From Candidatus Levyibacteriota bacterium (GTDB lineage Bacteria; Patescibacteriota; Microgenomatia; Levybacterales; UBA12049), in contig JACOXT010000003.1 in assembly GCA_016182235.1 (NCBI GenBank), positions 451,488-515,487 on the forward strand: 64,000 bases of DNA. Reading direction: 5' to 3'. Under the pieces are notes generated by a model that was not told the origin of the DNA, did no database searches, and was given only the letters and a program-made list of their open reading frames with translations. Shown one piece after another: positions 3,565-60,898 of this stretch; the stretch's first letter is position 1, and every line of letters starts with the position of its first letter. The position numbers and the translations under genes were made by a program.

Positions 3565-4108
3565 GCTAACAAGAAGAATAAAAACTGTATTGTTGGAATT
3601 TATAGTCATGAAGCTGCATTTTGTGGGATATGTTCCATCGCATCATTATCGTAGGTTTTTTTATAGACTTTTTGGTATGAAAATTGGAAGAGGATCAACA
3701 ATACACATGGGTGCTCGATTTTATAATCCAAGAAACATACAAATTGGTGAGGATTCTATTGTCGGTGAAGGGACAGTATTGGATGGAAGAGACAAATTGA
3801 CTATTGGAGATCATGTGGATATAGCAAGTGAAGTTATGATTTATAATTCAGAACACGATGTTCAAAGTAGCGATTTTCAGGCAAAGACTGCGCCTGTTGA
3901 AATTTCAGATTATGTTTTTATTGGACCACGTGTAATTATTTTGCCCGGAGTAAAAATTGGTAAAGGAGCTGTAATTGCTGCAGGAGCGGTGGTTACAAAA
4001 GACGTTGAGAGTTTTGCAATTATTGGTGGTGTACCTGCACAAAAGATTGGAGAAAGAAAAATTAAGGAATTAAATTACAAACTCGGAAGAGCTGCGTGGT
4101 TTAGATAG
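3557..4108 (+). CDS. hexapeptide-repeat (LbH) sugar O-acetyltransferase, WcaF/maltose acetyltransferase-like
   Basis: 183 aa with repeated [LIV]G-x4 hexapeptide units (IGEDSIVGEGTVLDG..IGDHVDIAS..IGPRVIILPGVKIGKGAVIAAGAVV). Confidence 0.8.
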   Translation: MSRLTRRIKTVLLEFIVMKLHFVGYVPSHHYRRFFYRLFGMKIGRGSTIHMGARFYNPRNIQIGEDSIVGEGTVLDGRDKLTIGDHVDIASEVMIYNSEHDVQSSDFQAKTAPVEISDYVFIGPRVIILPGVKIGKGAVIAAGAVVTKDVESFAIIGGVPAQKIGERKIKELNYKLGRAAWFR

Positions 4109-4127
4109 CCTAAAATCTTTAATTGTT

Positions 4128-5018
4128 GTGATAGAACTCTCTATAATTATTCTTTCTTATAATACCAAAGATTTAACGCGTCGATGCATCCAATCAGTAA
4201 GAAAGCAATATAAAAAAGAACTGATAGACAAAAAATTGGAAATTATAGTTATTGACAATAATTCATCCGATGATTCTGCATCTTTATTGTCAGATCTTAA
4301 AAAAGAAATACTCGCCTCGCGGCGAAGCGGGTCAAATTTTACACTAATTCAAAATAGAGAAAATTTAGGATTTGCTAAAGGTTGCAATTTCGGCGCTAAA
4401 AACGCTAAAGGAAAATATCTTCTTTTTCTAAATTCTGATACTACAGTTCTAGATAGGGGATTTTTACGGATGACAGAATTTTTAGATAATCACAAAGAAG
4501 CTGGTATTTTGGGTGGAAGACTTCTGAATCCAAATGGTACTCCCCAACGATCGGGTGGAAAGTTTTATAACCTATGGTACCTTTTTTTAATGCTTTTAGG
4601 GTTGGAGGTGTTAGTAAGAAGATCACCTACTAAGATAGATAAGATTGATTGGGTAAGTGGGGCTTGCTTGATGATAGGAAAGAATCAATTCAATAATCTA
4701 TCTGGTTTTGATGAACATTTTTTCATGTACATAGAAGACATGGAATTATGCTATAGGATGAGAAAACTTGGTTTTTCAACTTATTTTTATCCTTTTGTTG
4801 GGATTGAGCATAAAACCCTAGGTAGCAGCAACAGATCATTTGCTATAATTAATATTTATAAGGGAATTCTCTATTTTTATTCAAAACACAAAAATCATCT
4901 AGAGTATTTAGTTGCCAAAACATTGCTTATCTCAAAAGCAGAAATTTTAATTTTGGTAGGATTTTTGACATTTAGCTCTGGGCTAAGGGATAGATACAGA
5001 AAGGCGGTAATGTTTTAA
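4128..5018 (+). CDS. GT2-family glycosyltransferase
   Basis: N-terminal IIILSYNTKD and VIDNNSSDDS with a DXD-like FLNSDT. Contains a GC-palindrome insertion at 4311-4332. Confidence 0.8.
   Translation: MIELSIIILSYNTKDLTRRCIQSVRKQYKKELIDKKLEIIVIDNNSSDDSASLLSDLKKEILASRRSGSNFTLIQNRENLGFAKGCNFGAKNAKGKYLLFLNSDTTVLDRGFLRMTEFLDNHKEAGILGGRLLNPNGTPQRSGGKFYNLWYLFLMLLGLEVLVRRSPTKIDKIDWVSGACLMIGKNQFNNLSGFDEHFFMYIEDMELCYRMRKLGFSTYFYPFVGIEHKTLGSSNRSFAIINIYKGILYFYSKHKNHLEYLVAKTLLISKAEILILVGFLTFSSGLRDRYRKAVMF
4311..4332. repeat. GC-rich palindromic core CTCGCCTCGCGGCGAAGCGGGT inside GT2 CDS
   Basis: Same core family as the copies at 29026-29047 and (reverse complement) 45518-45538. Confidence 0.6.
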
Positions 5019-24652: not shown

Positions 24653-27600
24653 TCAATTGTTATTTCTCTTAAAATGTTCTCTTATTTTTTCAACTAATTC
24701 AGGAGAGTAGTGTTCGCTTTGAATATTTCTTCTTCCTCTTAAAATTCTAAACCATTCAGGATGATCCTCTCGAAATTGGGTAGCGAATTCACTAACTCGG
24801 GGACTTATTATACCTAGTTCTTTAGCCAAAGTAGTTTTATTTAACCAACCAACTTCCAAATCTGAAGGCCTAGCATTCTCTTGTTTTATCAACGAGGTAA
24901 GTTCTGGAGATACAAAGTAACCAATGTGGCGACTTTCATTCCGAAATACTCCCAAAAGGGTTGGGTGAGATTCTTTATACTGACTTAACAATCTTAATAC
25001 AGAAGCTTCAGATAACCTCAGGTTATTAGATAGTTCAATCGTATTTGACCAGCCAGGTGGTGGCGCTACTACTTCCAAATACTCATTTTTTATCAGTTCT
25101 ACTAATTCAGGTGAAAAGTATTGAGACAGATGGTGTTTTCTTCCTACCAATACTTTAAAATATTCAGGATGTGATTTTCCGTATCTTTTCACGTAGAATC
25201 TAACATTGACAGCATCAATACCAAAAATTTGTTCTATATCATAACTATTCATCCATCCTGTTGGAGGGGTTTCTCTACCTATAATTTCATTTCTTAATAG
25301 CTTTTCTATTTCAGGAGCAACATATTCTCGTACCTTACTTTTTTGTCTTTCTCGATCAATATATATTCTAAAGAGCTGTGGGTAAGTTTTACGATACTCT
25401 TCAATTCTTTTATTTACAGTTGTTCTAGAAATGCCTAATTCTTTGTGAATAACACTATGGTCAATCCATCCTTCATCTGGTTTATTAAGAAGCAGAGTGA
25501 TTTCATCTCTAAGTAAAGTAGCAAGCTCTGGAGAAAAATGCTCAGAAATTCTACCGCCTTGTGTCGTTCTGAACAATTGAATTCCCTCGGCTTGAATGTC
25601 TCTATTTTTTCCTACAAGTGTATTAATAACAGCTGTACTGATTCCAAACTCTTTTCCTAGTAAACTTGGACGCACCCAGCCCTCGCTAGCAACTGGAACT
25701 TTATCTAATTTTGTCTTTAAATAATCAATGATAGAAGCTGATATATATTCTGCGACTCTTCCTCCTCTTTTTTTGAATATTCCAAACATTTCAGGATGAC
25801 TTTCTTTATATCTTGCAGTGAATCTTTTAATAGTTTTTCTATCAACTTTTAATAAACGGGCAGCCTCTCTTTCCGTTACCCAACCTTCAGGTGGAATGTC
25901 AGCAGTTACTAGATTGTCTCTTGTCTGTTGTCTAATTATACCAACTAATTCAGGAGATAAGTATTCAATTATTTGCCCTCCTTCTCTTTTGAAAACTCTA
26001 AAATATCTTGGGATATTTACTCGATATTCATTAATAATTCTTCTAAGCGTTGGGCGCGAGATATTTAACTCACTTTCGATTGAAGTTAAACTTTGCCATC
26101 CTTCTATTGAAGCCTGTAATTTTTCTTTTGTATCTTTGATCATTTCTACCAATTTGGGGGAAACATATTCGTACACCCGTCCTCTAGAGCTACGAAATAA
26201 TTTAAAATCTTCCGAGTATAAGTCTCTTAGGTTGTCTAAAATTCGACGCATAGTTTGCGGACCAACTCGATAAGTGTTATTTAAAGCTGTAATGCTTAAC
26301 CACCCTTCCTGAACAGGTTGATACTTTTGTTCAACCACCTGTTGAACAATTTTCATTACCTCTTCGGCTTCTGTGATAACTTTTAAGCCGTAAATCTCTA
26401 TTTGAGGGTAAAGTATAGTTCCGGTGTCGGTATCTTCTCTAGGATAATCTGGAGGATTATCTTTCCTAAATATATGGGCAGATTCTAGTATTTGAGCAAA
26501 TGAAACCGGAAAACGATTCGGATCTCCAAAATTGTCTATAAAGTCGACGATATAGGCATGCTTGAATGGATTGGCTGGGTCCGGTCTTAATACGCGTCCA
26601 GCCCTTTGTTCAGCAACCACAGGAGATGCAGTTGGTCGAAGATTAAGACATACATTGACGCTAGGATCATCAAAACCCTGTATAAGAAGATCGGCATTAC
26701 ATAATACCTTTATTTCCCCTGTTTTGTATTTTCTTAATATGGTTTTCTGTTCTGCTGGCAACTGATATCCGCTAACAACTGCTGCCTTTATACCATTTTC
26801 TTCAAAACGTTTAGCTAAATCTGTCGCATGATTAACTGTGACACAATAAGCTAATGCCTTTTGATCTAGGAACATAGCTTTATATAGATCGACCGCAGCT
26901 GAATTTCGAGTTGTTATGTTTATTGCTCGTTCAAGATCTTCATCCTTATACTCCCCTGTGCTTGTTATTTTAACTTCACTTAAATCAACATCTGTTTTTC
27001 CAATATACACAGATAAAGAAGAAAGCATCCCCAGCTCTATTGCTTCTCTAATAGGCATGCTATGAATCTCGGTATTTAGCAGGTTACCCAGGTGTTTATC
27101 TTTTGTGTATCTAGGAGTTGCAGTAAAACCAAGTTTTACAGCGTTTGTAAACTTGCGTACTGCTTCCATTCTTCTTGGGCTTAACGATTCATGTGCCTCA
27201 TCCAAAATAAGCAGTTCGTAATCTTCAGGTTTCATTTTTACCGACTCAACATCTTTTAAAAACGACGCATACGTAATAATTGTTACTGGTTTTTCATATT
27301 CTTTTGATCGCGCATAAACTTTTCCAGTTTCAACAGTCGGCGCAAACTCTTCAAATCTCTCTTCTGTTTGGTCAACCAAGATTTGCGTCGGCACAACTAT
27401 GAGAGTTTTAAGGTCGGTGGCTTCGACAAACTCGGTAAATACTACAGTTTTTCCAGAACCAGTAGGCAATCGTATATAACCTTCTGTAACTCCTTCCTCA
27501 ATAGATTTTCTCAATGCTTCAAATGCGTTCATTTGAGGATCAAAAAGAGTTCTCTCGTCTTCGTTTTGGGAATAATAGGTATTAATATATCTATCAAGTG

Positions 27601-27853
27601 CGTTGAGAGCATGTATTCTCCTTTCATATAATAGATTAGGTTCTTCATTTCTTTTTTGTCTGCGTAAAGTATCAACATACACTTTGTATCTGGTAGGAAA
27701 TTTTTCTTTAAGTTCGCTTGAAGTTGTATCAAATAGTACTCCATTATCTAACATTGGAGATATGGGACTACCTAAAGCTTCTGAAACATTGTTAACTTGC
27801 CTACCAAGTTGTTCTATTGTTTTTGGTTTTGCTCGCTCGATCATAGCCAGCAA
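24653..27853 (-). CDS. SF2 helicase (ResIII/XPB-like core) fused to eight tandem ~68-aa winged-HTH-like (excisionase/MerR-like) repeats
   Basis: Walker A LPTGSGKTV, DEAH box ILDEAHE and motif VI QRAGRVLR fall within aa 125-425. From aa 516, eight repeats follow the pattern EGW-x6-LAKELGISRxTV-x6-YRxxHPExF-x7-GGR-x3-EY(F)SPELVxxI. Confidence 0.85.
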   Translation of the reverse strand: MLAMIERAKPKTIEQLGRQVNNVSEALGSPISPMLDNGVLFDTTSSELKEKFPTRYKVYVDTLRRQKRNEEPNLLYERRIHALNALDRYINTYYSQNEDERTLFDPQMNAFEALRKSIEEGVTEGYIRLPTGSGKTVVFTEFVEATDLKTLIVVPTQILVDQTEERFEEFAPTVETGKVYARSKEYEKPVTIITYASFLKDVESVKMKPEDYELLILDEAHESLSPRRMEAVRKFTNAVKLGFTATPRYTKDKHLGNLLNTEIHSMPIREAIELGMLSSLSVYIGKTDVDLSEVKITSTGEYKDEDLERAINITTRNSAAVDLYKAMFLDQKALAYCVTVNHATDLAKRFEENGIKAAVVSGYQLPAEQKTILRKYKTGEIKVLCNADLLIQGFDDPSVNVCLNLRPTASPVVAEQRAGRVLRPDPANPFKHAYIVDFIDNFGDPNRFPVSFAQILESAHIFRKDNPPDYPREDTDTGTILYPQIEIYGLKVITEAEEVMKIVQQVVEQKYQPVQEGWLSITALNNTYRVGPQTMRRILDNLRDLYSEDFKLFRSSRGRVYEYVSPKLVEMIKDTKEKLQASIEGWQSLTSIESELNISRPTLRRIINEYRVNIPRYFRVFKREGGQIIEYLSPELVGIIRQQTRDNLVTADIPPEGWVTEREAARLLKVDRKTIKRFTARYKESHPEMFGIFKKRGGRVAEYISASIIDYLKTKLDKVPVASEGWVRPSLLGKEFGISTAVINTLVGKNRDIQAEGIQLFRTTQGGRISEHFSPELATLLRDEITLLLNKPDEGWIDHSVIHKELGISRTTVNKRIEEYRKTYPQLFRIYIDRERQKSKVREYVAPEIEKLLRNEIIGRETPPTGWMNSYDIEQIFGIDAVNVRFYVKRYGKSHPEYFKVLVGRKHHLSQYFSPELVELIKNEYLEVVAPPPGWSNTIELSNNLRLSEASVLRLLSQYKESHPTLLGVFRNESRHIGYFVSPELTSLIKQENARPSDLEVGWLNKTTLAKELGIISPRVSEFATQFREDHPEWFRILRGRRNIQSEHYSPELVEKIREHFKRNNN

Positions 27854-34449: not shown

Positions 34450-36210
34450 ATGTGCGGTATATTCGGCTATGTTGGCAAGAAATCTAGTGCTGCCAAAATT
34501 GTTTTTGACGGACTGAAACTTCTTGAGTATAGAGGGTATGATTCATGGGGAATCGCAATAAAAATCAAAAATAAGTTTATTATTGAAAAACACGTTGGTA
34601 AAATTGGAGATGCAAAGATTAATCTTCCGGAAGGTGATTTGGGAATAGGGCATACTCGCTGGGCGACTCACGGAGGAGTAACGGTTGCAAATGCTCATCC
34701 TCATCTGGATTGCACAAAGTCCATAACTGTTGTTCATAACGGCATTGTTGAGAATTTTCAGGAAATAAAAGATAAGCTTGTAAAATTAGGACACAAGTTT
34801 GTTTCAGAAACTGATACAGAAGTCATCCCTCATCTTATTGAAGAAAACTTGAAACATATTGGTTTTGCATCTTCTGTTCGTAACTCCTTTAATAAATTAA
34901 GAGGTCTAAACGCTATTGTGGTTGCGAATGCCGTTTCAAAAGAAATCGTAGCGGCCAAGAACGGTTCGCCTCTTATTGCGGGTATAGGAAGTGGGGAGTT
35001 TCTTGTCTCGTCCGATATTGTTGGAATTGTGCCTCATACAAGAAATGTAATTTTTCTAAAAGATAATGAAATGGTGATCTTGGGTAAAGAAATTCAGCTT
35101 ATTTCTCTTCCAACCGGAAAAAAACTTTCTATAAGACCCGAAAAAATAGATTGGAAATTTGAAAATACATCAAAAGGCAAGTTCCAGGACTTTATGATTA
35201 AGGAAATCCATGAACAGCCGCTTATCGTACGAAATATCGCCAAAAATTATTCGGAGAGTTTGAAAAAACTTGCAAATTATGTTCAAAATGCCAAAGGCAC
35301 ATTTTTTATTGGAGCTGGTACCGCGTTTCATGCCGGCCTTTCCGGAACTTATTTTTTTTCCAAAATCGCCAAAAAACACGTAAATACTACAGTTGCCTCT
35401 GAATTTAATTATTTGGAGGATTTTTTGACAAAAGAAAGCCTTGTTATTGTTCTTTCCCAAAGTGGTGAGACAATTGATGTTGTTGAGCCTGTAAATAGGG
35501 CAAAAAGTAAAAAAAGTAAAATCGTTGCGATTACAAATTCCTTGGGTTCAACACTTTATAGGATGGCAGATTATAATGTTTTGTTAAACGCCGGTCCGGA
35601 AAAGGCAGTCGCCTCAACAAAAGCCTATATCGCAAAACTTTCGGTTTTATTGATGCTGACATTTGCCTTAATTAACAAAGAAGAAAGAGCAAAAGAAATT
35701 CTTCTTAGGACTGCAAAGGAGATGGAAAGGCTTTTGGAAAGCAAACAAGTTTTGGAAATTAAAAAAATTGCCAAGTTTTTGTCAAAAACTAGAAATATTT
35801 ACGCACTTGGCCGCGGCGCGTCTTATCCTTCAGCCCTTGAGGCTGCTTTGAAAATAAAAGAAGTGACCTATATTCCAACAGAAGGATTTCCCGGAGGAGA
35901 GCTAAAGCACGGCACAATTGCACTGATAGGGCATGGAACGCCGGTTATAGTATTTGCTCCTCAGGATGAGACTTATGAATCTATTATTTCAAATGCTATT
36001 GAAATCAAATCAAGAGGCGGAGTTATAATTGGAATTTCCGATAGACAATCTTCAGCTTTTGATTATTTTATTTCAGTCAAGGACGTGGAAGAAGGTTCAT
36101 ATTTAGCGCAAGTTGTAGTTGCTCAGCTTTTGGCTTATTATATGGCAGTTGAATTGAAGCTTGATCCTGATATGCCCCGCAACCTCGCAAAATCAGTTAC
36201 CGTAAAATGA
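34450..36210 (+). CDS. glmS: glutamine--fructose-6-phosphate aminotransferase
   Basis: Begins MCGIFGY (N-terminal nucleophile Cys2) and has two SIS domains. 586 aa. Confidence 0.9.
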   Translation: MCGIFGYVGKKSSAAKIVFDGLKLLEYRGYDSWGIAIKIKNKFIIEKHVGKIGDAKINLPEGDLGIGHTRWATHGGVTVANAHPHLDCTKSITVVHNGIVENFQEIKDKLVKLGHKFVSETDTEVIPHLIEENLKHIGFASSVRNSFNKLRGLNAIVVANAVSKEIVAAKNGSPLIAGIGSGEFLVSSDIVGIVPHTRNVIFLKDNEMVILGKEIQLISLPTGKKLSIRPEKIDWKFENTSKGKFQDFMIKEIHEQPLIVRNIAKNYSESLKKLANYVQNAKGTFFIGAGTAFHAGLSGTYFFSKIAKKHVNTTVASEFNYLEDFLTKESLVIVLSQSGETIDVVEPVNRAKSKKSKIVAITNSLGSTLYRMADYNVLLNAGPEKAVASTKAYIAKLSVLLMLTFALINKEERAKEILLRTAKEMERLLESKQVLEIKKIAKFLSKTRNIYALGRGASYPSALEAALKIKEVTYIPTEGFPGGELKHGTIALIGHGTPVIVFAPQDETYESIISNAIEIKSRGGVIIGISDRQSSAFDYFISVKDVEEGSYLAQVVVAQLLAYYMAVELKLDPDMPRNLAKSVTVK

Positions 36211-36299
36211 CTTTGCCCTGAGTGAATAGATGCGAATCGAAGGACAAAAAGCGTGACTGTAAAGTAAATCCTCAGAAAAAGTGGTAAAATCTGCTTGTT

Positions 36300-37127
36300 A
36301 TGAGTAGAGTGGAAACTTTTCCCAGGCCAACACAAGTTGAAATCCCTAAAGTAAAGAACATGCCTCTTTCTGATATTGTTCCTGAACCGGAGAGGCGATC
36401 CTCACCTCCCGGATTAATAACTGTTGCGGGCCATGAACTCAACCATGCTCTGGTCGCACTGGCTCATGGGATACCAATTGTTAGTCTTTCCGTAATGCCG
36501 AAAGGCGACTCACTAGGCAGAACAGTTATCGGAGGGTGGGTTTCAACGGAAACGATGAAGGTAATCGCGGCAGGCGGAGGGGTTGAGACGCATGATGGAA
36601 GCGCGGAGGGCTTTGGAAGCGATAAATACAAGGTAGATGTCATGCATCATTTTCATGGCGGGCATTCCTGGGACTCGGCAAGAAATCAAGCCGCGAGTAT
36701 CGTTTCCAGATTTTCAAATAGAATTAGGGAAAGAGCTGCGGAAATTATAGCTTATTTGGGGACAGTAGCAGGATCACTTATTGGAGACATAATGCGTCGT
36801 GCGCAAATGGAACTTGATCAAGAAAAAGGAATCGAAACAGAGCAATTAATATTAGTTTCAAACCCTCAGCAGGAATATAAATATAAAACAATTATTGACG
36901 AGCTTCCGGGCAATGTGCAAAGAATTAGATATGTAGTGGTAGGAGTAGTTAAAAAAGAAGAATATCTTTGCGGAATTTGCCAGGGAATAAACAGCCATGA
37001 AGAAGATTGCCCAAACGCAAAACTCAAAGAAAATTCGGATGAATCTAAATCTTCCCCAAAACCGCTAACAAATGAAGGGATAATTATCTCTTTCCCAGTC
37101 CGCAAGCCTCTAAAACTTGTTGCATGA
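36300..37127 (+). CDS. putative Zn-metallopeptidase-like protein (HExxH) with C-terminal Cys-rich zinc-ribbon-like motif
   Basis: AGHELNHALVALAHG (HExxH) and CGICQGINSHEEDCPN. GC content of about 48% against about 33% in the flanks. Confidence 0.45.
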   Translation: MSRVETFPRPTQVEIPKVKNMPLSDIVPEPERRSSPPGLITVAGHELNHALVALAHGIPIVSLSVMPKGDSLGRTVIGGWVSTETMKVIAAGGGVETHDGSAEGFGSDKYKVDVMHHFHGGHSWDSARNQAASIVSRFSNRIRERAAEIIAYLGTVAGSLIGDIMRRAQMELDQEKGIETEQLILVSNPQQEYKYKTIIDELPGNVQRIRYVVVGVVKKEEYLCGICQGINSHEEDCPNAKLKENSDESKSSPKPLTNEGIIISFPVRKPLKLVA

Positions 37128-37291
37128 TAGGTTGATATATAATGAATTGAAAGACTGAATGGTGAAAAAAAGTAGAGAAGAGATTATAATAATGGTATAA
37201 ATTCAAATGCGAAAGAGAATTTAAAGGCGACTAGTGTATTGGCGAAATTCGTAATTAAAAGGAACACTTAAAGAAAATAATAAAGAAGTAG

Positions 37292-40024
37292 ATGAATAAA
37301 CTGCAAAAAGAAGCAAAAGAAAAAATTAAAGAACTTATCGGTAAGTATGAGTTAGCTGTTGTGGCGGGGCAAATTAAGAAGTACACGGAAGAAGAGACAA
37401 AAAATTCTTTTATAAAACCTCTTTTTGAAGCTCTAGGATGGGATTTTTCAGAAAAAAACGAAGTCTCTGCGGAAGAAAATATTATATCTTCAGGCAGAGT
37501 TGATTACGGATTTTATATTAACGGTCGAGCCAAATTTTATCTTGAAGCAAAAAAGTTAAAAGCGGATTTAAATTCGGAAGAATTTGCCCGCCAAGCAATT
37601 AGATACGGCTTCAATAAGGGCGTTACTTGGGCTGTTTTAACTGATTTCGAAAGCATCAAGGTCTTTAATTCCCAAGCTCTTTCAAATTATTTAGGGGATA
37701 AACTGTATTTTGAAATAAATTATTCGGAATATTTAGAGTGTTTGGATCAATTATGGCTCTTGTCAAAAGAAGCATTTGAAACTGACCTAATTGATAAGGA
37801 GGCTGAGAAAGCAGGTAAGAAATTACAAAAAGTTCCTGTTACTGAGCTTCTCTATAAAGATTTAAATGAATGCAGAAAAATATTGACAGAATATTTGGGT
37901 AAATGGAATCCGAAAGTGACAAAAGATCTTTTAGATGAAGGTGTACAAAAATTACTAGATAGATTAATTTTTATCAGAGTTGCCGAAGATAGAAAAATTG
38001 AACAGAATATTTTAGTTCCTTTAATTAATCAGTGGAGAGCTTTTGCTGGTAAGAATAAACCCGAGCTGTATGAATCCATGGCTGACAAATTTAGAGAGCT
38101 TGATGATATTTACAATTCCAATCTATTTACTCCGCATCCTTTTGAGAAATGGGAGGACGATGGCGGAGCGCTAGAGAAAGTCATAAAAATTCTACACGGA
38201 AAATCAGGTTATTATGAATATGACTTTAGTGTTATGCCGGCTGATGTTTTAGGAAGTGTCTATGAAAATTACTTGGGACATAAATTATCTCAGTCTAAAA
38301 AAGGACTGACGTTGGATAAAACAGCAAATAAAAGAAAAGAACAGGGAATTTACTATACTCCAACTTTTATAGTTGATTATATTGTCAGAAATGCTCTAAA
38401 ACCAGTTTTGGATAAGTGCAGAAGCATTAATGATTTGAAGAAAATTAAAGTTTTGGACCCTGCTTGCGGTTCGGGATCTTTTCTCATAAAAGCGTTGGAA
38501 GTTATAGCGGAAAAGTACAAGGATTTTAACGCTCCAATAAATGAGTTTACGAAAATACAAATAATTTTAGAGAATTTATATGGAGTTGATTTGGATATGC
38601 AAGCGGTAGAAATTGCAAGACTTAATCTACTGGTTAATACTCTCGAGGAAAAAGGCAAACTGCCCTCTTTGGACAAAAATATAAAGAATGGCAATTCGTT
38701 GATTTCAGGAACAGACGAAGAACTGGAAAAATATTTCGACAAAAACTTCAGAGACAAAAAACCTTTTAATTGGCAAGAAGAATTTCCGGAAGTCTTCAAG
38801 CAAGGTGGATTTGATGTAATAATAGGCAATCCTCCATACATTTTTGCTCGGGGTGGTAATTTTGATGACAATGAAAAAAAATATTATTATGACAACTATA
38901 AACTTCAAAAATATCAGATTAATACGTACCTTCTTTTTATAGAACGCACATACAACTTACTTAAACAGAACGGGAGATTAGGGTTCATAGTTCCTAACAA
39001 CTGGTTAACGATAAGCACTTTCAAGAATCTTAGAGAATTTATCCTGAAGGAGATGGGGGGAGTAAGAATAATTAATACTGTTGAAGCAGTATTTTCTCAG
39101 GCAAGTGTTGATACTTGCATTCTAATATTTGAAAAGTCAAAACCAACAGAAATTCAACTTGGAGAGCTAAGGGAAAATCAAGCACCATTAATGAAAAAAT
39201 ACAAGCCAGAAGATTTTTATGCGAACGATTTTATAATAAATATAACAAAAATATCTAGCCTTAAAGGCAATGCTATATTGAACAAAATAGATAGCAATTC
39301 CCTTTCTCTTAGTGACATAGCAAGAGTGTCTTCTGGGTTAAAAGCTTATCAGGAAGGCAAAGGTAAGCCGATTCAAACAAAAGAGATTAAAGAATCAAGA
39401 AAATATCATTCTCAGAAAAGACTAGATAAAACTTATTTTCCATATTTACAAGGTAGCGATGTCAAACGATATTTTCTTGACTGGTCTAAGGAATACTTAA
39501 GTTATGGTGATTGGTTAGCCGAACCAAGAAAATCTGTTCCCTTCAACGGCCATAGAATCTTAGTTCGGCAAATACCTTCTTCTTTACCTTACTGCATAAA
39601 TGCTGCATATACAGAAGATTACTATTTTAACGATATTAACAGTATGGTTATTTTCGATTCGATTAGAGGATACGATCTTAGATACATTCTGGGTATTATA
39701 AATACTAAGTTAATTTCCTATTGGTTTGCAAATGTTTTTGATAAATTTCAACGTAAAATATTCCCACAATTTAAGGTAAATGAGCTAGCTAAATTTCCGA
39801 TTTATAAGGCAGAAAAAAATAAACAAAAAGCAATTATTGAATTGGTTAATAAGATAATGCAGCTTAAGAAAGATTTAAAAAAATTAGATGCAAATTCCAA
39901 TAAATGGGTCAAGATAAAAGAAGAAATAGAAAAAACGGACAAAAAAATTGATGAAGAAGTCTATAAACTCTATGGTCTCACGCAGGAAGAAATTAGAGTT
40001 GTGGAAGATAATAACGAGAACTAA
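37292..40024 (+). CDS. Type IIG/IIL restriction-modification enzyme (MmeI-like): N-terminal PD-(D/E)xK nuclease, gamma-class N6-adenine methyltransferase, C-terminal TRD
   Basis: N-terminal ...GRVDYGF..FYLEAKK (D...E-x-K), methyltransferase motif I VLDPACGSGSFL, motif IV IGNPPY. 910 aa, close to the MmeI family size. Confidence 0.75.
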   Translation: MNKLQKEAKEKIKELIGKYELAVVAGQIKKYTEEETKNSFIKPLFEALGWDFSEKNEVSAEENIISSGRVDYGFYINGRAKFYLEAKKLKADLNSEEFARQAIRYGFNKGVTWAVLTDFESIKVFNSQALSNYLGDKLYFEINYSEYLECLDQLWLLSKEAFETDLIDKEAEKAGKKLQKVPVTELLYKDLNECRKILTEYLGKWNPKVTKDLLDEGVQKLLDRLIFIRVAEDRKIEQNILVPLINQWRAFAGKNKPELYESMADKFRELDDIYNSNLFTPHPFEKWEDDGGALEKVIKILHGKSGYYEYDFSVMPADVLGSVYENYLGHKLSQSKKGLTLDKTANKRKEQGIYYTPTFIVDYIVRNALKPVLDKCRSINDLKKIKVLDPACGSGSFLIKALEVIAEKYKDFNAPINEFTKIQIILENLYGVDLDMQAVEIARLNLLVNTLEEKGKLPSLDKNIKNGNSLISGTDEELEKYFDKNFRDKKPFNWQEEFPEVFKQGGFDVIIGNPPYIFARGGNFDDNEKKYYYDNYKLQKYQINTYLLFIERTYNLLKQNGRLGFIVPNNWLTISTFKNLREFILKEMGGVRIINTVEAVFSQASVDTCILIFEKSKPTEIQLGELRENQAPLMKKYKPEDFYANDFIINITKISSLKGNAILNKIDSNSLSLSDIARVSSGLKAYQEGKGKPIQTKEIKESRKYHSQKRLDKTYFPYLQGSDVKRYFLDWSKEYLSYGDWLAEPRKSVPFNGHRILVRQIPSSLPYCINAAYTEDYYFNDINSMVIFDSIRGYDLRYILGIINTKLISYWFANVFDKFQRKIFPQFKVNELAKFPIYKAEKNKQKAIIELVNKIMQLKKDLKKLDANSNKWVKIKEEIEKTDKKIDEEVYKLYGLTQEEIRVVEDNNEN

Positions 40025-40045
40025 CTGGCCGATGAAAATTTTCAT

Positions 40046-41128
40046 TTGAATATGGCATACCCACTTATCATTTTAGGAGCAGGTGCATCCTTTGACTTTC
40101 AAGATCTTTTAGATTATGAGGGAAGCAATGACATTATTAAGCTACTTGAATGGCGTCCTCCACTTGTAAATAAAATGTTTGATGTTGCGCGACTTGGAAG
40201 AATAATTGGAAACTATGATGATGTTAAACCACTTGCCTCAACAGTAAATAATCTTGTTAAAAATAAAAATATCAACTTTGATTTTGAAAAGCATTTGTCA
40301 CAAATAGAAAGCAAGTATCCTGAAAATAGCTATAAACAGATAATGGCCTTAAGGTTTTACCTTGCAGAACTTTTTAGTAAAATTTCTTACTACTATTTTA
40401 GACATACAAATAACCATCTTCATTTAATTAACGAGGTCAATAACAGAGGAGGAAATGCCTGTGTTGTAAACTTTAATTATGATACTTTATTTGAAAAGAA
40501 TATTAAAACTATCGGTAATAATGATAATATCGATGCCTATATTTCAGGAAACATCAAGATAATTAAAATACACGGTGCTCATAATTGGCGTTACAGCCCC
40601 AAAGCAGCAATTGCTAAAACTGGTGTTTATGATTTTTTTATATCTGGAGGGCGGAGCTTCTATGAAGAATATAAAGATCATGAAGTTGATCCAACAACTA
40701 CAAAAATTCTTGACTACAGTAAAGAAAATTTTGACCTAAACGAGTATAGGAAAAGTAGGGAAGATAAAACCCTCTCTATCAACACATGGCTATACTACTT
40801 ACCTGCAATAGCAATACCTATAGGGACAAAAGGAAATCACGTATGCCCAAAAAAACACATAAACACTTTAATTGAACAGTTAAAGATGGTTGACAGGATT
40901 CTTGTTATTGGATGGCGCGTTCAGGATGAGTACCTTTTATCACTATTAAAAGCACACTTACAAAATGGTGTTAAGTTAACTGTCGTATCTAGTGGCAATA
41001 CCTCAGCAAAAGAATACATAGAAAAGTTTAAGGCAATAATTCAAATAAAAATTCTAGACATGACTTTTCCTAATAATGGATATACAAATTTTATGATTAA
41101 CGGAGGGATTGAACGATTTTTATCATAA
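40046..41128 (+). CDS. SIR2_2-like (Thoeris ThsA/DSR-type SIR2) domain protein, putative NAD+-consuming defense effector
   Basis: LIILGAGASFDF (GAGxS), VVNFNYDTLFE (NYD motif) and IKIHGAHNW (HG motif). Confidence 0.6.
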   Translation: MNMAYPLIILGAGASFDFQDLLDYEGSNDIIKLLEWRPPLVNKMFDVARLGRIIGNYDDVKPLASTVNNLVKNKNINFDFEKHLSQIESKYPENSYKQIMALRFYLAELFSKISYYYFRHTNNHLHLINEVNNRGGNACVVNFNYDTLFEKNIKTIGNNDNIDAYISGNIKIIKIHGAHNWRYSPKAAIAKTGVYDFFISGGRSFYEEYKDHEVDPTTTKILDYSKENFDLNEYRKSREDKTLSINTWLYYLPAIAIPIGTKGNHVCPKKHINTLIEQLKMVDRILVIGWRVQDEYLLSLLKAHLQNGVKLTVVSSGNTSAKEYIEKFKAIIQIKILDMTFPNNGYTNFMINGGIERFLS

Positions 41129-41264
41129 CTCATGAAATTTGACCAACCGGTAAAAAATTATGAGGAGATATAAAACTAAATTGTTCGATATTGCAACCCA
41201 GACAGAACGAAAATTTACATGATAAAATCTCAAGAGATACTTGTGGAGATATTTAAAAAATAAT

Positions 41265-41420
41265 ATGGGTAAAAGTAAAAAAATTATTGTAAAAGGAAGC
41301 AAAATCGGTATCATCTTACATATTGGGGATAATGATTTTATCTCTCTAACCGATATGGCAAAATATAAAACTTACTGGTTTGGGGACTGGTTTGGGGACG
41401 GTCCTCGGAGGTGTTGTTAA
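41265..41420 (+). CDS. 51-aa ORF resembling a KilA-N/Bro-N-like N-terminal fragment (possible mobile-element remnant)
   Basis: MGKSKKIIVKGSKIGIILHIGDNDFISLTDMAKYK... The 3-prime end overlaps the TTTGGGGAC repeat motif. The assignment is weak. Confidence 0.2.
   Translation: MGKSKKIIVKGSKIGIILHIGDNDFISLTDMAKYKTYWFGDWFGDGPRRCC
41378..41410. repeat. GGTTTGGGGAC x2 + GGTCCTCGGAG motif (copy 1 of 3)
   Basis: ggtttggggactggtttggggacggtcctcggag. Confidence 0.6.
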
Positions 41421-41547
41421 GACACTCCAAAACAAACGCTGTTCTTGGAGCACCCACAACTCACCCTTAAATACTTGAGAATATTGGCATGTTATCGATT
41501 ATCTATTTCTTTTACTATCTCGAGCATGAAGGAGTAGATGTCTATTT

Positions 41548-42198
41548 CTATTGTTCAATTGCTAAAACCTGAAGGTGACTTTCGTGTTGTTCCAGAACCC
41601 CGCCATATGTCTGAACATATATGGATACAGTATGGTTTCCGGCAGATACAGGGAATACTCCGTTTACCGCTAAAGGAACTGCGGCATTTGCCGTAGTCAT
41701 AGTCGTTTGGTTGAACACTGCTTGATCAATATCATCAATATAAATATGGTAGAGGTGCTGAAATCCTCCGACTGTATTTCTGGTATCAACGTCGTAGTTT
41801 ACCCATAGAAGGCAATTTTCCGGGCAATTGGCTGTAATCTCATCAGGCGTTTTTACACTGTGTGGGTGTGTTATAGAAGTGCTAAAGAAAGATCCCCTTC
41901 TGGACCATATTCCAAAAACTATTTTATTTGATAAATTCTTGTTTTCAATTTCTTCAATTTTTGCAGACATTGTCGCATCATTAGTCTTGAGATCCTCTAT
42001 ATCGTCTTCATTTTGACTGACCCTGTTACTTAGGTCGTCGATGTCTTTTGACAAATTTGAGATAGCATCGGATATGAGTTGTTCAACTTGTACTATTGTT
42101 GCGAAAATGGGATTATTTACAGGTGCCGCTTTTACTAACTGGGGAAAAGCTAGGATGCCAGCAAGGAAAAGAAGCAGGATTGTTCTTTTAACTACCAT
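41548..42198 (-). CDS. secreted coiled-coil protein with C-terminal beta-rich domain (hypothetical)
   Basis: Signal peptide MVVKRTILLLFLAGILAFPQLVKA, then an acidic coiled-coil (DDLSNRVSQNEDDIEDLK), then a C-terminal globular domain. Flanked on both sides by the GGGGAYGGTCCT motif. Confidence 0.6.
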   Translation of the reverse strand: MVVKRTILLLFLAGILAFPQLVKAAPVNNPIFATIVQVEQLISDAISNLSKDIDDLSNRVSQNEDDIEDLKTNDATMSAKIEEIENKNLSNKIVFGIWSRRGSFFSTSITHPHSVKTPDEITANCPENCLLWVNYDVDTRNTVGGFQHLYHIYIDDIDQAVFNQTTMTTANAAVPLAVNGVFPVSAGNHTVSIYVQTYGGVLEQHESHLQVLAIEQ

Positions 42199-42240
42199 AA
42201 TTAAGTTGTATTGTAAGAATATTAAATCTATTTGTCAATC

Positions 42241-42260
42241 GTTTGGGGATGGTCCTGAGA
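42241..42260. repeat. GTTTGGGGATGGTCCTGAGA motif (copy 2 of 3), 43 nt upstream of the minus-strand secreted-protein gene
   Basis: gtttggggatggtcctgaga. Confidence 0.6.
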
Positions 42261-42449
42261 TATATTGTTGTAGTAAGCTGAAAGTGAAACATTTTGATCC
42301 TTCGGCCAGCTCAGGACAAGTATGTAGGCATCAATTCAAATGTTAATTATTTTGCCTTGAGAAGATTTTAAGGGTTAGAAACAAGAACTATGTTAAAAAG
42401 TATTTAAACTTTAATTTTTTCTTAAAAAGCTTTAAGATAGTAAGATTGC

Positions 42450-42818
42450 ATGATGGATGAAGAAAGATTTAGAGAGTTGGTGGAGGAGGCGATTGATTCA
42501 CTTCCGACTGAGTTTGCGGAAAAACTTAATAACGTTGCAGTTATTGTGGAGGATACTCCCTCTCCAATGCAAATTAGAAAACTTGGGCTTCGTTCGTTAA
42601 CTCTTCTTCTGGGACTTTATGAAGGAATCCCCCAAACAAAAAGAGGGCATTATTCAGGAGTGCTTCCTGACAAAATAACAATATTCAAAAGCTCAATTGA
42701 GATGATCGCAAGAACTGAAGAGGAGATAAAAGAAAAGGTCAGAGATACGGTTATCCATGAAATCGGGCATCACTTCGGGCTTTCCGATAAAGACTTGGAC
42801 AAGAATAGGGTAGAATAG
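42450..42818 (+). CDS. small zincin-like metallopeptidase family protein (HExxH)
   Basis: VIHEIGHHFGLSD in a 122-aa protein, placed immediately upstream of mraY. Confidence 0.6.
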   Translation: MMDEERFRELVEEAIDSLPTEFAEKLNNVAVIVEDTPSPMQIRKLGLRSLTLLLGLYEGIPQTKRGHYSGVLPDKITIFKSSIEMIARTEEEIKEKVRDTVIHEIGHHFGLSDKDLDKNRVE

Positions 42819-42832
42819 TATAATATAGTTCT

Positions 42833-43843
42833 ATGGCGCAACTTTTGGGGCTGATTCTCCTTTCTTTATTCATTACCGCCATTCTTTTAGTTCCCTTTAT
42901 AGATTTTCTATATCGGATGAAGTTTCGCCGCCTCAAGCAAAGGACGCTGGATATGTTTAATAAGCCAACGCCTGTTTTTGATAAGTTCAATAACTGGAAA
43001 GTTGGAACGCCTGTAGGAGGAGGATTACTAATTATCGCTGTTGTTTCCATCTTGACCTTGTGGGCATATGGAATACTGGGTGTTGAGTATAAGCCGTGGC
43101 AGCTTTTTGCCATTTTATTTACATTCATAGGTTTTGGAGCGTTGGGGTTTTATGATGATATGAAAAAGCTGGTTAACGGCAGAAAAATAGCTTTTTTTGG
43201 TCTTCGCTTTAGGCATAAATTTATAATTCAATGGATATTGGCCCTTATTATCGCATCAGTATTGTATTTCAAACTGGGTTACTCTTTTATCTTCATCAAA
43301 GGGTTTGATCTTATAACATTGGGGTTTCTATTTATACCGTTTGCGGCTTTTGTAATAGTCTCATTTGCTAACGCATTTAATATAGCTGATGGATTAGACG
43401 GACTTTCATCAGGGCTTCTTCTTATTTGTCTTGCGGCCTTTCTTGCAATTACAGCTAATCAATTAGATGAGCCTCTTGGAATTTTTATCGCGATCCTCAT
43501 GGGAAGCGTTGCCGCATTTTTATATTTTAACATCTATAAAGCAAGAATTTGGCTTGGAGATGTCGGTTCCTTGTCTCTGGGCGCTGTTTTGGCTGTTATG
43601 GGACTATTGACAGGTAAGATTATCGCCCTTGCTTTTATAGGCGGAGTATTTGTTATAGAAATAGCATCTTCTCTTATTCAGATTATCTCTAAAAAATTTT
43701 TTCATAGAAAGGTGTTTTTAGCCTCGCCTTTTCATTTGTTTTTACAAAGACTTGGCTGGGAAGAACCGAAAGTTGTTATGAGAGCGTGGCTTTTAGGATT
43801 TCTTTTTGCAATATTAGGTCTTTATATTGCTTTTATAACTTAG
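42833..43843 (+). CDS. mraY: phospho-N-acetylmuramoyl-pentapeptide-transferase
   Basis: Ten-TM protein with the NAFNIADGLDGL motif. Confidence 0.9.
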   Translation: MAQLLGLILLSLFITAILLVPFIDFLYRMKFRRLKQRTLDMFNKPTPVFDKFNNWKVGTPVGGGLLIIAVVSILTLWAYGILGVEYKPWQLFAILFTFIGFGALGFYDDMKKLVNGRKIAFFGLRFRHKFIIQWILALIIASVLYFKLGYSFIFIKGFDLITLGFLFIPFAAFVIVSFANAFNIADGLDGLSSGLLLICLAAFLAITANQLDEPLGIFIAILMGSVAAFLYFNIYKARIWLGDVGSLSLGAVLAVMGLLTGKIIALAFIGGVFVIEIASSLIQIISKKFFHRKVFLASPFHLFLQRLGWEEPKVVMRAWLLGFLFAILGLYIAFIT

Positions 43844-60595: not shown

Positions 60596-60651
60596 ATCTT
60601 CTAAGTTCGATTATATAACAAAAGCTGAGAGAAAGTTTATCGAAACGTACA

Positions 60652-60693
60652 TGGGGACCATTTTGGGGACCATTTTGGGGATGGTCCTCAGAG
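60652..60693. repeat. GGGGACCATTTT x2 + GGGGATGGTCCTCAGAG motif (copy 3 of 3), 57 nt upstream of the minus-strand DmpA-family gene
   Basis: tggggaccattttggggaccattttggggatggtcctcagag. GGACCAT and ATGGTCC can pair as a 7-bp hairpin. Confidence 0.6.
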
Positions 60694-60898
60694 CGATTGA
60701 TTTAACAATCCAGACTAATCATAGATTTGAGATATAACTCCACTTTGATAAAATTAGCCGATTGGAATAATTGTCAACAATTTGGCTTTGATTTTATGAA
60801 TAATATTAAATGTTTTGAAACATTTAATCTAATTCATAATTTCTCATATTTTATTTTATTGAATAGCATGGTAGAATCTAAGGCGTTGAAAATTAACA

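Follow-up and report, generated by a model that had tools for sequence, protein, structure and literature searches.

What is a restriction enzyme gene, followed almost directly by a gene for a sirtuin-like protein, doing inside the cell-wall and division cluster of a patescibacterial genome? The locus lies in a 64,000-nucleotide stretch of contig JACOXT010000003.1 from Candidatus Levyibacteriota, hereafter the window. The window carries a cell-wall/division cluster with an ftsI-like penicillin-binding protein (PBP) gene, Mur ligase genes, murA, glmU and glmS (34450-36210); the cluster is then interrupted, and resumes with mraY (42833-43843), ftsW, murG, ftsA and ftsZ. The initial annotation had described, in this interval, a foreign island of three co-oriented open reading frames (ORFs) of 275, 910 and 360 aa, the last at 40046-41128 and the others as in Table 1, encoding a HExxH protein, a type IIG restriction-modification (RM) enzyme and a SIR2_2-like protein. 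The three frames are present where they had been placed, and the glmS...mraY-ftsZ cluster is indeed split. Sequences identical to the SIR2-like and the HExxH protein are annotated in a Candidatus Levybacteria metagenome-assembled genome as hypothetical proteins, HYT07_02770 and HYT07_02760, respectively. The best overall explanation, which we hold with about even confidence, is a two-gene defense cassette composed of the RM enzyme and a stand-alone SIR2_2-type enzyme that would act as an RM-linked, second-line, NAD+-depleting abortive-infection effector. That the two genes form a defense cassette with a NAD-consuming SIR2 effector is probable; a genuine functional coupling to the RM enzyme, with the SIR2-like protein as a guard or caged toxin (an RM-gated NADase) rather than a mere co-located gene, is a more tentative proposal, on which we lean slightly to the negative side.

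The restriction-modification enzyme and the SIR2-like protein

The first gene of the pair encodes a single chain of 910 aa. Pfam models Eco57I (3.8e-41), N6_Mtase (6.5e-27), TaqI_C (7.6e-19, residues 717-837) and HSDR_N (2.4e-7) match along the protein, as does the PADLOC model REase_MTase_IIG (1.9e-117 over residues 7-634), and the expected motifs are in place: D71 and E85-x-K87 of the nuclease, DPACGSGSF and NPPY of the methyltransferase (MTase). Pfam, PADLOC and motifs agree with the predicted combination of a PD-(D/E)xK nuclease, a gamma-class N6-adenine (m6A) MTase and a target recognition domain (TRD). The label "MmeI-like" that came with this prediction was imprecise, and membership of the MmeI family proper was rejected: only MmeI_Mtase matches (4.5e-14), far below Eco57I, the TRD is of the TaqI_C type, the N-terminus is HSDR_N, the Pfam scan returned no MmeI-specific domain beyond the MTase core, and no MmeI chain occurs among the PDB sequence matches. 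The nearest solved relatives are CamA, PglX/BrxX, RM.BsaXI and M.TaqI. The enzyme has the single-chain nuclease-MTase-TRD layout of Eco57I-family/TaqI_C-type IIG enzymes (BsaXI-like, BpuSI-like) and of BREX PglX, with which it has the gamma-class motifs and a TaqI-like TRD in common. Judged by these domains, it carries all the parts of a first-line barrier, by which host DNA would be methylated and unmodified DNA cut.

The second gene begins 21-27 nt past the RM stop codon. Its mechanical ORF starts at the TTG at 40046 (360 aa), and the homologues and the NCBI gene model favor the ATG at 40052 (358 aa). The AlphaFold2 (AF2) model, built with 49 homologues, confidently predicts a Rossmann-type sirtuin fold (pLDDT 92.7, pTM 0.92). 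Foldseek matched it to Sir2Af2, Sir2Tm, SIRT2 and CobB in the PDB (probability 1.0, E ~1e-7), and to viral sirtuins among viral structures (probability 1.0). In the model the whole 358-aa protein is a SIR2 domain, with no obvious separate sensor domain. The GAGAS, NYD and HG motifs are all found in the window protein. Of 139 distinct relatives, 134-138 retain each of G11-A12-G13, N144 and H176 (360-aa numbering); P253, P258, C267, H271 and W290 are further invariant residues beyond the NAD site. In SaSir2, the Asn and His form the catalytic dyad, and an H287 mutant has no NADase activity (PMC11514289). The alignment thus shows a retained sirtuin NAD-binding loop and Asn/His pair, in what looks like a catalytically intact SIR2_2 domain.

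Cysteine is present in more than half of the sequences at only two alignment columns, so the family has no four-Cys zinc module. SIR2_2 proteins lack the zinc module that deacetylation needs (PMC12700824). Because the GAG loop, N144 and H176 are kept and the zinc module is missing, the protein would fall in the SIR2_2/antiphage class rather than among the deacetylases. By itself the window protein stays below the threshold of every SIR2 model, with PADLOC SIR2 at 1e-4. Among 49 relatives, 34 match the Pfam model SIR2_2 (PF13289) at E<=0.01, the best of them at 3.8e-8, and PADLOC SIR2 models recognize 30. A family profile searched against PDB sequences retrieved the SIR2 domain of SIR2-HerA (8w9l/8wld group) weakly (E 0.002), with NYD-L-E and K-HG-W aligned, making it the closest solved sequence relative. 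The SIR2_2-like assignment, originally made from motifs, proved right despite sub-threshold scores, given the sirtuin Foldseek matches and the PF13289 matches of the relatives.

Linkage of a SIR2-like subclade to restriction-modification operons

The family numbers 281 word-indexed matches and 1,576 representatives at 50% identity (E<=1e-30), with single-domain members of ~330-370 aa throughout. Its distribution is patchy, covering Patescibacteria, Acidobacteriota, Nitrospira, Bathyarchaeia and other groups. No relatives emerged when metagenomes were scanned with the window protein alone, a scan that was then repeated with an alignment, and tblastn against plasmid and phage collections gave no match. 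For a census of neighbors, ORFs were called at ~160 SIR2-like loci and searched with iterated hidden Markov models seeded from HsdR, HsdM, HsdS and the window IIG enzyme; in addition, all neighbors at 80 loci were clustered by blastp in an unbiased manner. The clustering revealed no universal partner family across the 80 loci. RM genes were the only recurrent neighbors, and these in one subclade only, while many members are solitary beside HSP70, LepA, MFS, PilM, SMC, IS66, prophage tail genes, AAA_21, NERD, SNase or UvrD.

The subclade in question is the neighbor-joining (NJ) subtree around the window protein. There, 13 of 19 loci are RM-adjacent (12 of 18 once the duplicate pair L038/L109 is merged), against 2 of 118 in the rest of the family. 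RM genes make up 20 of the 32 ORFs adjacent to the SIR2-like genes of this subtree and 5 of the 828 ORFs lying more than 3 kb away, a contrast that is independent of where the subclade boundary is drawn. The arrangement is also recurrent: ten of the 12 distinct loci share the order hsdM-(1-3 variable genes)-hsdS-SIR2-hsdR, in which genes are 1-3 nt apart or their stop and start codons overlap, and the other two lie beside type IIG enzymes. The order is complete in L013, L017, L021, L092, L095, L096, L100 and L109 and partial in L011 and L094. The closest relative of the window protein (L001/L013, 64-66% identical) is found in such an operon, hsdM-NYN-hsdS-SIR2-hsdR, with gaps of 1-3 nt. Type IIG partners occur at three loci: in the window (gap of 21 nt), at L031, where the IIG gene is followed by the SIR2-like gene with a 14-nt overlap, and at L014, where the two genes are divergent and ~510 bp apart. 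L031 is placed in a different part of the tree, and the three type IIG enzymes are only 24-31% identical to one another. L013, the closest relative, belongs to a type I operon, and this SIR2 lineage therefore swaps between RM types.

Identity among the partner HsdR proteins is 29-73%, and they have not diverged in step with the SIR2-like proteins; SIR2-like proteins with 54-66% identity, moreover, are found with RM partners of two types. These comparisons argue for an association that is old, re-formed repeatedly, or both, rather than one recent event. Congruence between SIR2-like and HsdR proteins was tried as evidence of co-inheritance and set aside as mixed (Spearman 0.13, not significant; Pearson driven by one duplicate pair). 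Taken together, the census shows that the linkage of the SIR2 subclade to RM operons is statistically strong and architecture-specific. The pairing seen in the window is thus more than an accidental neighborhood, its relatives being repeatedly built into RM operons of two types.

Two observations on individual loci are worth recording. At L011 (1669-4760), the hsdR that follows the SIR2-like gene is split in three ORFs (207 + 150 + 603 aa), which may reflect either a decaying restriction subunit beside an intact SIR2-like gene or an assembly error. At L076 and L082 (7.8-11 kb), a distant, longer (~442 aa) SIR2-like branch follows a conserved block of genes for ~570, 690 and 614 aa, the last of which encodes a helicase of the UvrD type, and the block may represent another SIR2 system, one of several genes.

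Borders of the insert and its neighbors

The relatives of the window that lack the insert define its borders. Contig L006 has the order murA-glmU-157aa-glmS-HExxH-mraY-ftsW-murG-...-ftsA-ftsZ and contig L173 the order glmS-Zincin_1-mraY-ftsW-murG-ftsA-ftsZ, with nothing between these genes, and in the window 5.3 kb separates the HExxH gene from Zincin_1. Because both of these genes are residents of the interval, the insert is taken to extend from the end of the former to the start of the latter (Table 1). It contains the type IIG RM gene, the SIR2-like gene, a KilA-N remnant and a 216-aa reverse-strand ORF, and the comparison supports a foreign, defense-type insert within the cell-wall/division cluster. 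The island of the initial annotation was thus correct for the RM and SIR2 genes and wrong in its borders. The GC peak noted along with it is real (0.47 at 36250-36749) but belongs to the resident gene; the RM (0.326) and SIR2-like (0.320) genes are slightly poorer in GC than the window mean of 0.36, not richer. No integrase, tRNA or flanking direct repeats were found for the insert, a repeat search for att-like direct repeats at the 37.1 and 42.45 kb borders gave nothing convincing, and Rfam had no match at E<=1 across 36-43 kb.

Table 1. Features of the glmS-mraY interval in window coordinates.
Feature	Position	Strand	Basis or remark
275-aa HExxH protein; resident, left boundary marker, outside the module	36300..37127	+	FtsH/M41-like protease fold plus CCHC knuckle
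Inserted segment (island), approximate, ~5.3 kb	37128..42449	.	between two resident genes of the glmS-mraY interval
Promoter-like site GTGAAA-17-TATAAT	37162..37190	+	~100 nt upstream of the RM gene; weak
Type IIG RM enzyme, 910 aa	37292..40024	+	predicted N-terminal PD-(D/E)xK nuclease, gamma-class N6-adenine MTase, TaqI_C-type specificity domain
Stand-alone SIR2_2-type (sirtuin-like) protein, 358 aa; predicted NAD+-consuming effector	40052..41128	+	AF2/Foldseek, motifs, PF13289 matches of relatives
KilA-N domain gene remnant, 51 codons, N-terminus only	41265..41417	+	31-aa match (52% identity) with the N-terminal end of L092:3992-4825
Tandem 12-mers (TGGTTTGGGGAC x2) running into a short hairpin, within the 16-nt motif GTTTGGGGAYGGTCCT	41378..41418	+	terminator-like, downstream of the SIR2-like gene
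216-aa ORF with signal-peptide-like N-terminus and coiled-coil segment	41548..42198	-	inside the insert; may be a separate acquisition
Zincin_1 (PF06262) small metallopeptidase; resident, right boundary marker, outside the module	42450..42818	+	Pfam 4.6e-30; directly upstream of mraY

The HExxH protein had been suggested as a sensor or regulator, and third component, of the module. Its motifs are as described: HELNH at residues 45-49 and a C-terminal C224-x2-C227-x5-H233-x3-C237, both conserved in 33 homologues of ~270 aa that make up a small, lineage-restricted family. Wherever the contig is long enough for judgment, these homologues directly follow glmS. Besides L006, this holds for L009 (glmS-HExxH), and L007 reads glmS-157aa-HExxH-lexA; none of the three carries an RM or SIR2 gene, and no HExxH homologue was detected near any of the ~160 SIR2-like loci. 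Since its homologues follow glmS in genomes without RM and SIR2 genes, the HExxH protein is, by synteny, a resident and not a third component, and the co-occurrence of the three families across genomes, whose absence the initial annotation had itself named as a refutation, fails for this member. The homologues, too, are rich in GC (0.37-0.44, where the locus means are 0.34-0.37), and the elevated value of the window gene (0.436; 0.50 in its first half) is a matter of family composition, not of foreign origin. The AF2 model (pLDDT 79) has the M41 protease domain of FtsH/YME1 as its best Foldseek match (probability 1.0, E 3e-3), and would combine an FtsH/M41-like fold without the AAA+ module with a small beta domain that carries the conserved CCHC knuckle behind the protease domain. 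The suggested search for an ImmA/IrrE, M78 or SprT-type regulator thus led to FtsH/M41 instead; Pfam gave only sub-threshold M50/M50B matches, and these regulator families were rejected. In Levybacteria-like genomes the gene keeps its place between glmS and mraY/lexA, and its product may be a protease with a role in the cell envelope or in division.

The gene on the other border, Zincin_1, has more than 4000 homologues and is 70-79% identical across Levybacteria. It was considered as the true metallopeptidase partner and rejected, because relatives have it, highly conserved, as a resident gene just ahead of mraY. On the short contig L103, a SIR2-like gene (722-1732) preceded by a transposase-like fragment is followed after 110 nt by a Zincin_1 homologue (1843-2037; 51% identity to the window gene); this may be the same insertion hotspot, upstream of Zincin_1-mraY. 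In L017 (4662-5234) and L011 (4760-5332), a gene for a YgjP-like (M48/WLM/SprT-related) metallopeptidase overlaps the end of hsdR. A small zincin thus accompanies some type I plus SIR2 systems, but it is distinct from the HExxH protein.

Within the insert, a gap of 164 nt separates the HExxH gene from the RM gene. The promoter-like site in this gap is weak and no more than compatible with the start of a cassette transcript. The KilA-N fragment alone has no Pfam match and was recognized through L092, where a KilA-N protein (3992-4825; Pfam 7.9e-20) is encoded just after hsdM in a type I RM plus SIR2-like operon; this match suggests that the cassette is a mosaic assembled from RM-operon cargo. 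The 16-nt motif GTTTGGGGAYGGTCCT occurs three times in the window (41390-41405, 42241-42256 and 60673-60688, all on the + strand) against 0.06 copies expected. Ahead of each copy stand one or two tandem ~12-mers (TGGTTTGGGGAC or GGGGACCATTTT), and each copy can form a tiny hairpin. Two copies bracket the 216-aa reverse-strand ORF and the third is located in the intergenic region 60596-60898; the motif may serve as an operator or a terminator, or it may be a small repeat element. The 216-aa ORF has no family match at a meaningful E-value and is not present in L006 and L173. Because its GC (0.395) is higher than that of the RM and SIR2 genes (0.32), it may be a separate acquisition. Elsewhere in the window, a gene on the opposite strand (24653-27853, -) between the ftsI-like PBP and Mur ligase genes encodes a 1066-aa ResIII/DEAD-box/SWI2-SNF2-type helicase fused to a long array of helix-turn-helix motifs; a comparable helicase, fused to sigma-70 domains, is found near the RM operon of L001.

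A proposed coupling to restriction and its alternatives

In the mechanism that we propose, the RM enzyme would be the first line, methylating host DNA and cutting unmodified DNA, and the SIR2-like protein would be a latent NAD+-hydrolyzing abortive-infection effector, held as the second line. The two proteins would be expressed together, and the RM enzyme would most likely silence the SIR2-like protein; the latter would be unleashed once a phage blocks or overwhelms restriction, and the infected cell would be stopped. This logic has been demonstrated for PrrC/EcoprrI and for Ronin, and would here work through another toxin. In EcoprrI, PrrC stays latent until an anti-restriction peptide activates it (PMC3506569), being masked by EcoprrI and released by T4 Stp (PMC3506569, PMC9122126). 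The E. coli operon (prrA-prrB-prrC-prrD) likewise places its effector between the hsdS and hsdR genes of a type I system, and likewise holds a latent toxin masked by the RM complex and released upon phage anti-restriction attack, as is proposed here. However, PrrC is an ABC-ATPase plus HEPN anticodon nuclease with no sequence or fold relation to a SIR2 NAD-binding enzyme, and the window version is attached to a type IIG enzyme, so that the resemblance is one of logic and gene position only. In Ronin, HsdMS cages the RonA toxin until an anti-restriction protein (ArdA or Ocr) binds (10.1101/2023.04.06.535777). As is proposed here, Ronin has an RM-type MTase/specificity module (HsdS-HsdM) tightly linked to a toxin that the module suppresses, but RonA is a 61-aa membrane peptide and there is no hsdR, whereas our RM systems look complete with a nuclease and the effector would be enzymatic.

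The combination had been presented as unrecognized. Makarova, Anantharaman, Aravind and Koonin reported in 2012 that Sir2-superfamily genes are "linked" to Type I RM systems (Biol Direct 7:40, PMC3506569), proposed a PrrC-like coupling of immunity to suicide or dormancy, and listed Sir2-superfamily proteins as AbiH components (PMC3506569). The arrangement is alike, with a predicted Sir2 toxin inside an RM operon, and the hsdM-x-hsdS-SIR2-hsdR order is recovered in our census; the likeness is one of architecture. In the window, L014 and L031, by contrast, a single-chain type IIG enzyme stands where the 2012 cases have a type I system, and the lineage is patescibacterial. The link and its toxin rationale were therefore already in print, and the pairing with type IIG enzymes in the candidate phyla radiation comes in addition. 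What is added here (the type IIG pairing, the fixed hsdS-hsdR slot and the concentration in Patescibacteria) does not amount to a new category; conceptually, on our analysis, the cassette would be the Sir2 member of the "RM operon + toxin" class. In the searchable literature we found the 2012 comparative note only and no experimental study of an RM-embedded SIR2.

The analogy with Thoeris and DSR systems holds at the level of the catalytic domain and no further. SIR2-HerA (Nezha), ThsA, DSR1/DSR2 and SPARSA belong to the same catalytic class (SIR2_2/"SIRim"), with the GAG loop, the Asn/His dyad and no zinc module. Each of these systems was excluded: Thoeris, since the window protein is all SIR2 domain and no island ORF matches TIR or SLOG (ThsA is SIR2 + SLOG and is accompanied by the TIR protein ThsB); DSR1/DSR2, since these have ~1000 aa with SIR2 at the N-terminus and a ~700-aa C-terminal sensor domain; SIR2-HerA, since the neighbors are the RM gene and the 216-aa ORF, with no HerA among the annotated ones; and SPARSA, since there is no pAgo/APAZ. 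AbiH of Lactococcus lactis (PF14253) is likewise a single stand-alone protein of ~350 aa, a Sir2-superfamily member and an abortive-infection gene. The window protein does not match PF14253, and 7 of 49 relatives do so weakly (best 1.7e-4); SIR2_2 fits much better (34 of 49), and by Pfam the two are distinct families.

Several points weigh against a caged, RM-linked effector. NADase activity, toxicity and phage defense are properties that we infer for the SIR2-like family, and the window protein itself scores 16.4 bits against PF13289 (E 0.01), below the gathering cut-off of 24.5. Most of the wider family is not RM-adjacent, standing singly beside genes such as HSP70, LepA, MFS, IS66 and PilM; because 116 of the 118 loci outside the subclade have no RM neighbor, the protein can function or persist without an RM partner, which favors an autonomous system. 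The boundary of the subclade was drawn after the RM status of its members had been seen, which makes any P value for clade versus rest optimistic. Scans for promoters and terminators yielded no more sites than shuffled sequence does, and the operon structure is read from gene spacing only. The hsdM-hsdS slot also carries NYN, Fic/SoFic, DUF3800, AAA_15/21 and KilA-N cargo; these operons are general landing pads for defense genes. Finally, the same SIR2-like lineage pairs with type I systems and with type IIG enzymes, only 24-31% identical to one another, which sits poorly with a specific protein-protein cage except where it is the common MTase/TRD core that is contacted. A portable "restriction guard" of this kind, a bare NADase docked on the MTase/specificity core common to HsdM2S and type IIG enzymes, is a speculative and rather unlikely extension. 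It would be caged on this core and fire when anti-restriction proteins (DNA mimics, Stp-like peptides) or restriction failure disturb it.

The strongest alternative, a real possibility although we consider it unlikely on balance, is an autonomous, AbiH-type single-gene abortive-infection system in which the SIR2-like protein senses infection and depletes NAD+ alone. RM proximity would then reflect only the clustering of defense genes, co-mobilization and the benefit of shared expression, with no coupling to the RM enzyme. The uniform length and single domain of a mostly solitary family speak for it, as do the weak AbiH matches of seven relatives, given that AbiH has been placed in the Sir2 superfamily (PMC3506569), the unrelated cargo that RM operons hold as well, the two types and high divergence of the RM partners, and the presence of other members near IS66, an IS-like transposase fragment, prophage tail genes, NERD, SNase and AAA_21. 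Random clustering, however, should scatter positions and orientations, and the census instead finds one fixed slot, hsdS-SIR2-hsdR, with overlapping codons, next to HsdR proteins only ~30% identical; moreover, a 358-aa protein without an obvious separate sensor domain is not what autonomous sensing would lead one to expect. The same tight translational coupling inside hsd operons would be expected of an accessory or regulatory RM subunit, that is, a NAD-dependent ADP-ribosyltransferase or deacylase rather than a suicide effector, acting on the RM enzyme (for example in the control of restriction alleviation), on phage or host DNA, or on phage proteins. Sir2-superfamily enzymes can be ADP-ribosyltransferases (raised in PMC3506569; SirTM class, PMC12700824), and the invariant residues outside the NAD site could form a substrate site. 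Such a subunit is nonetheless improbable: most family members have no RM partner to regulate, all characterized SIR2_2-type antiphage enzymes that we found in the literature are NADases, and no macrodomain partner is present, unlike in SirTM systems.

Two further readings are very improbable. A composite of three genes, in which the HExxH/Zn-ribbon protein senses or regulates the RM and SIR2 enzymes, has in its favor co-orientation and proximity, in this window only; it is refuted by the synteny of the HExxH homologues, and the absence of these from the SIR2-like loci, a GC elevation that is a family trait, the 164-nt gap with its promoter-like site and a fold that is FtsH/M41-like, not ImmA/IrrE, all speak against it. 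The composite proposed initially thus survives as an RM/SIR2 pair without its metallopeptidase. Hardly more credible is a housekeeping sirtuin, a CobB-like protein deacylase lying by chance beside an RM gene. Canonical sirtuins are the best Foldseek matches, and the NCBIfam model for NAD-dependent deacylase matches very weakly (E 0.13), but the four-Cys zinc module is missing, none of the canonical SIR2 models of Pfam or NCBIfam matches the window protein at threshold, the distribution is patchy with variable genomic context, and the gene is not found in the syntenic contigs L006 and L173.

Suicide backups carried by RM systems have been tested in very few cases (PrrC, Ronin, EcoR22I), and the prediction of a Sir2 version dates from 2012. 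Together with its relatives, this locus forms a compact and well-defined test set, with a bare SIR2 domain of ~350 aa, a fixed type I slot and the same lineage on type IIG enzymes, which allows one to ask whether an RM complex can gate NAD+ depletion. If the SIR2-like protein is autonomous, it adds one more uncharacterized single-gene SIR2 system. If the restriction guard is true, it would be a backup in the style of PrrC and Ronin, but NAD+-depleting, interchangeable between RM types and prominent in CRISPR-poor Patescibacteria. Patescibacteria have tiny genomes, and CRISPR is rare among them. For such bacteria, a two-layer cassette of restriction-modification and abortive infection, placed in an essential cell-wall/division cluster, would be an economical defense.

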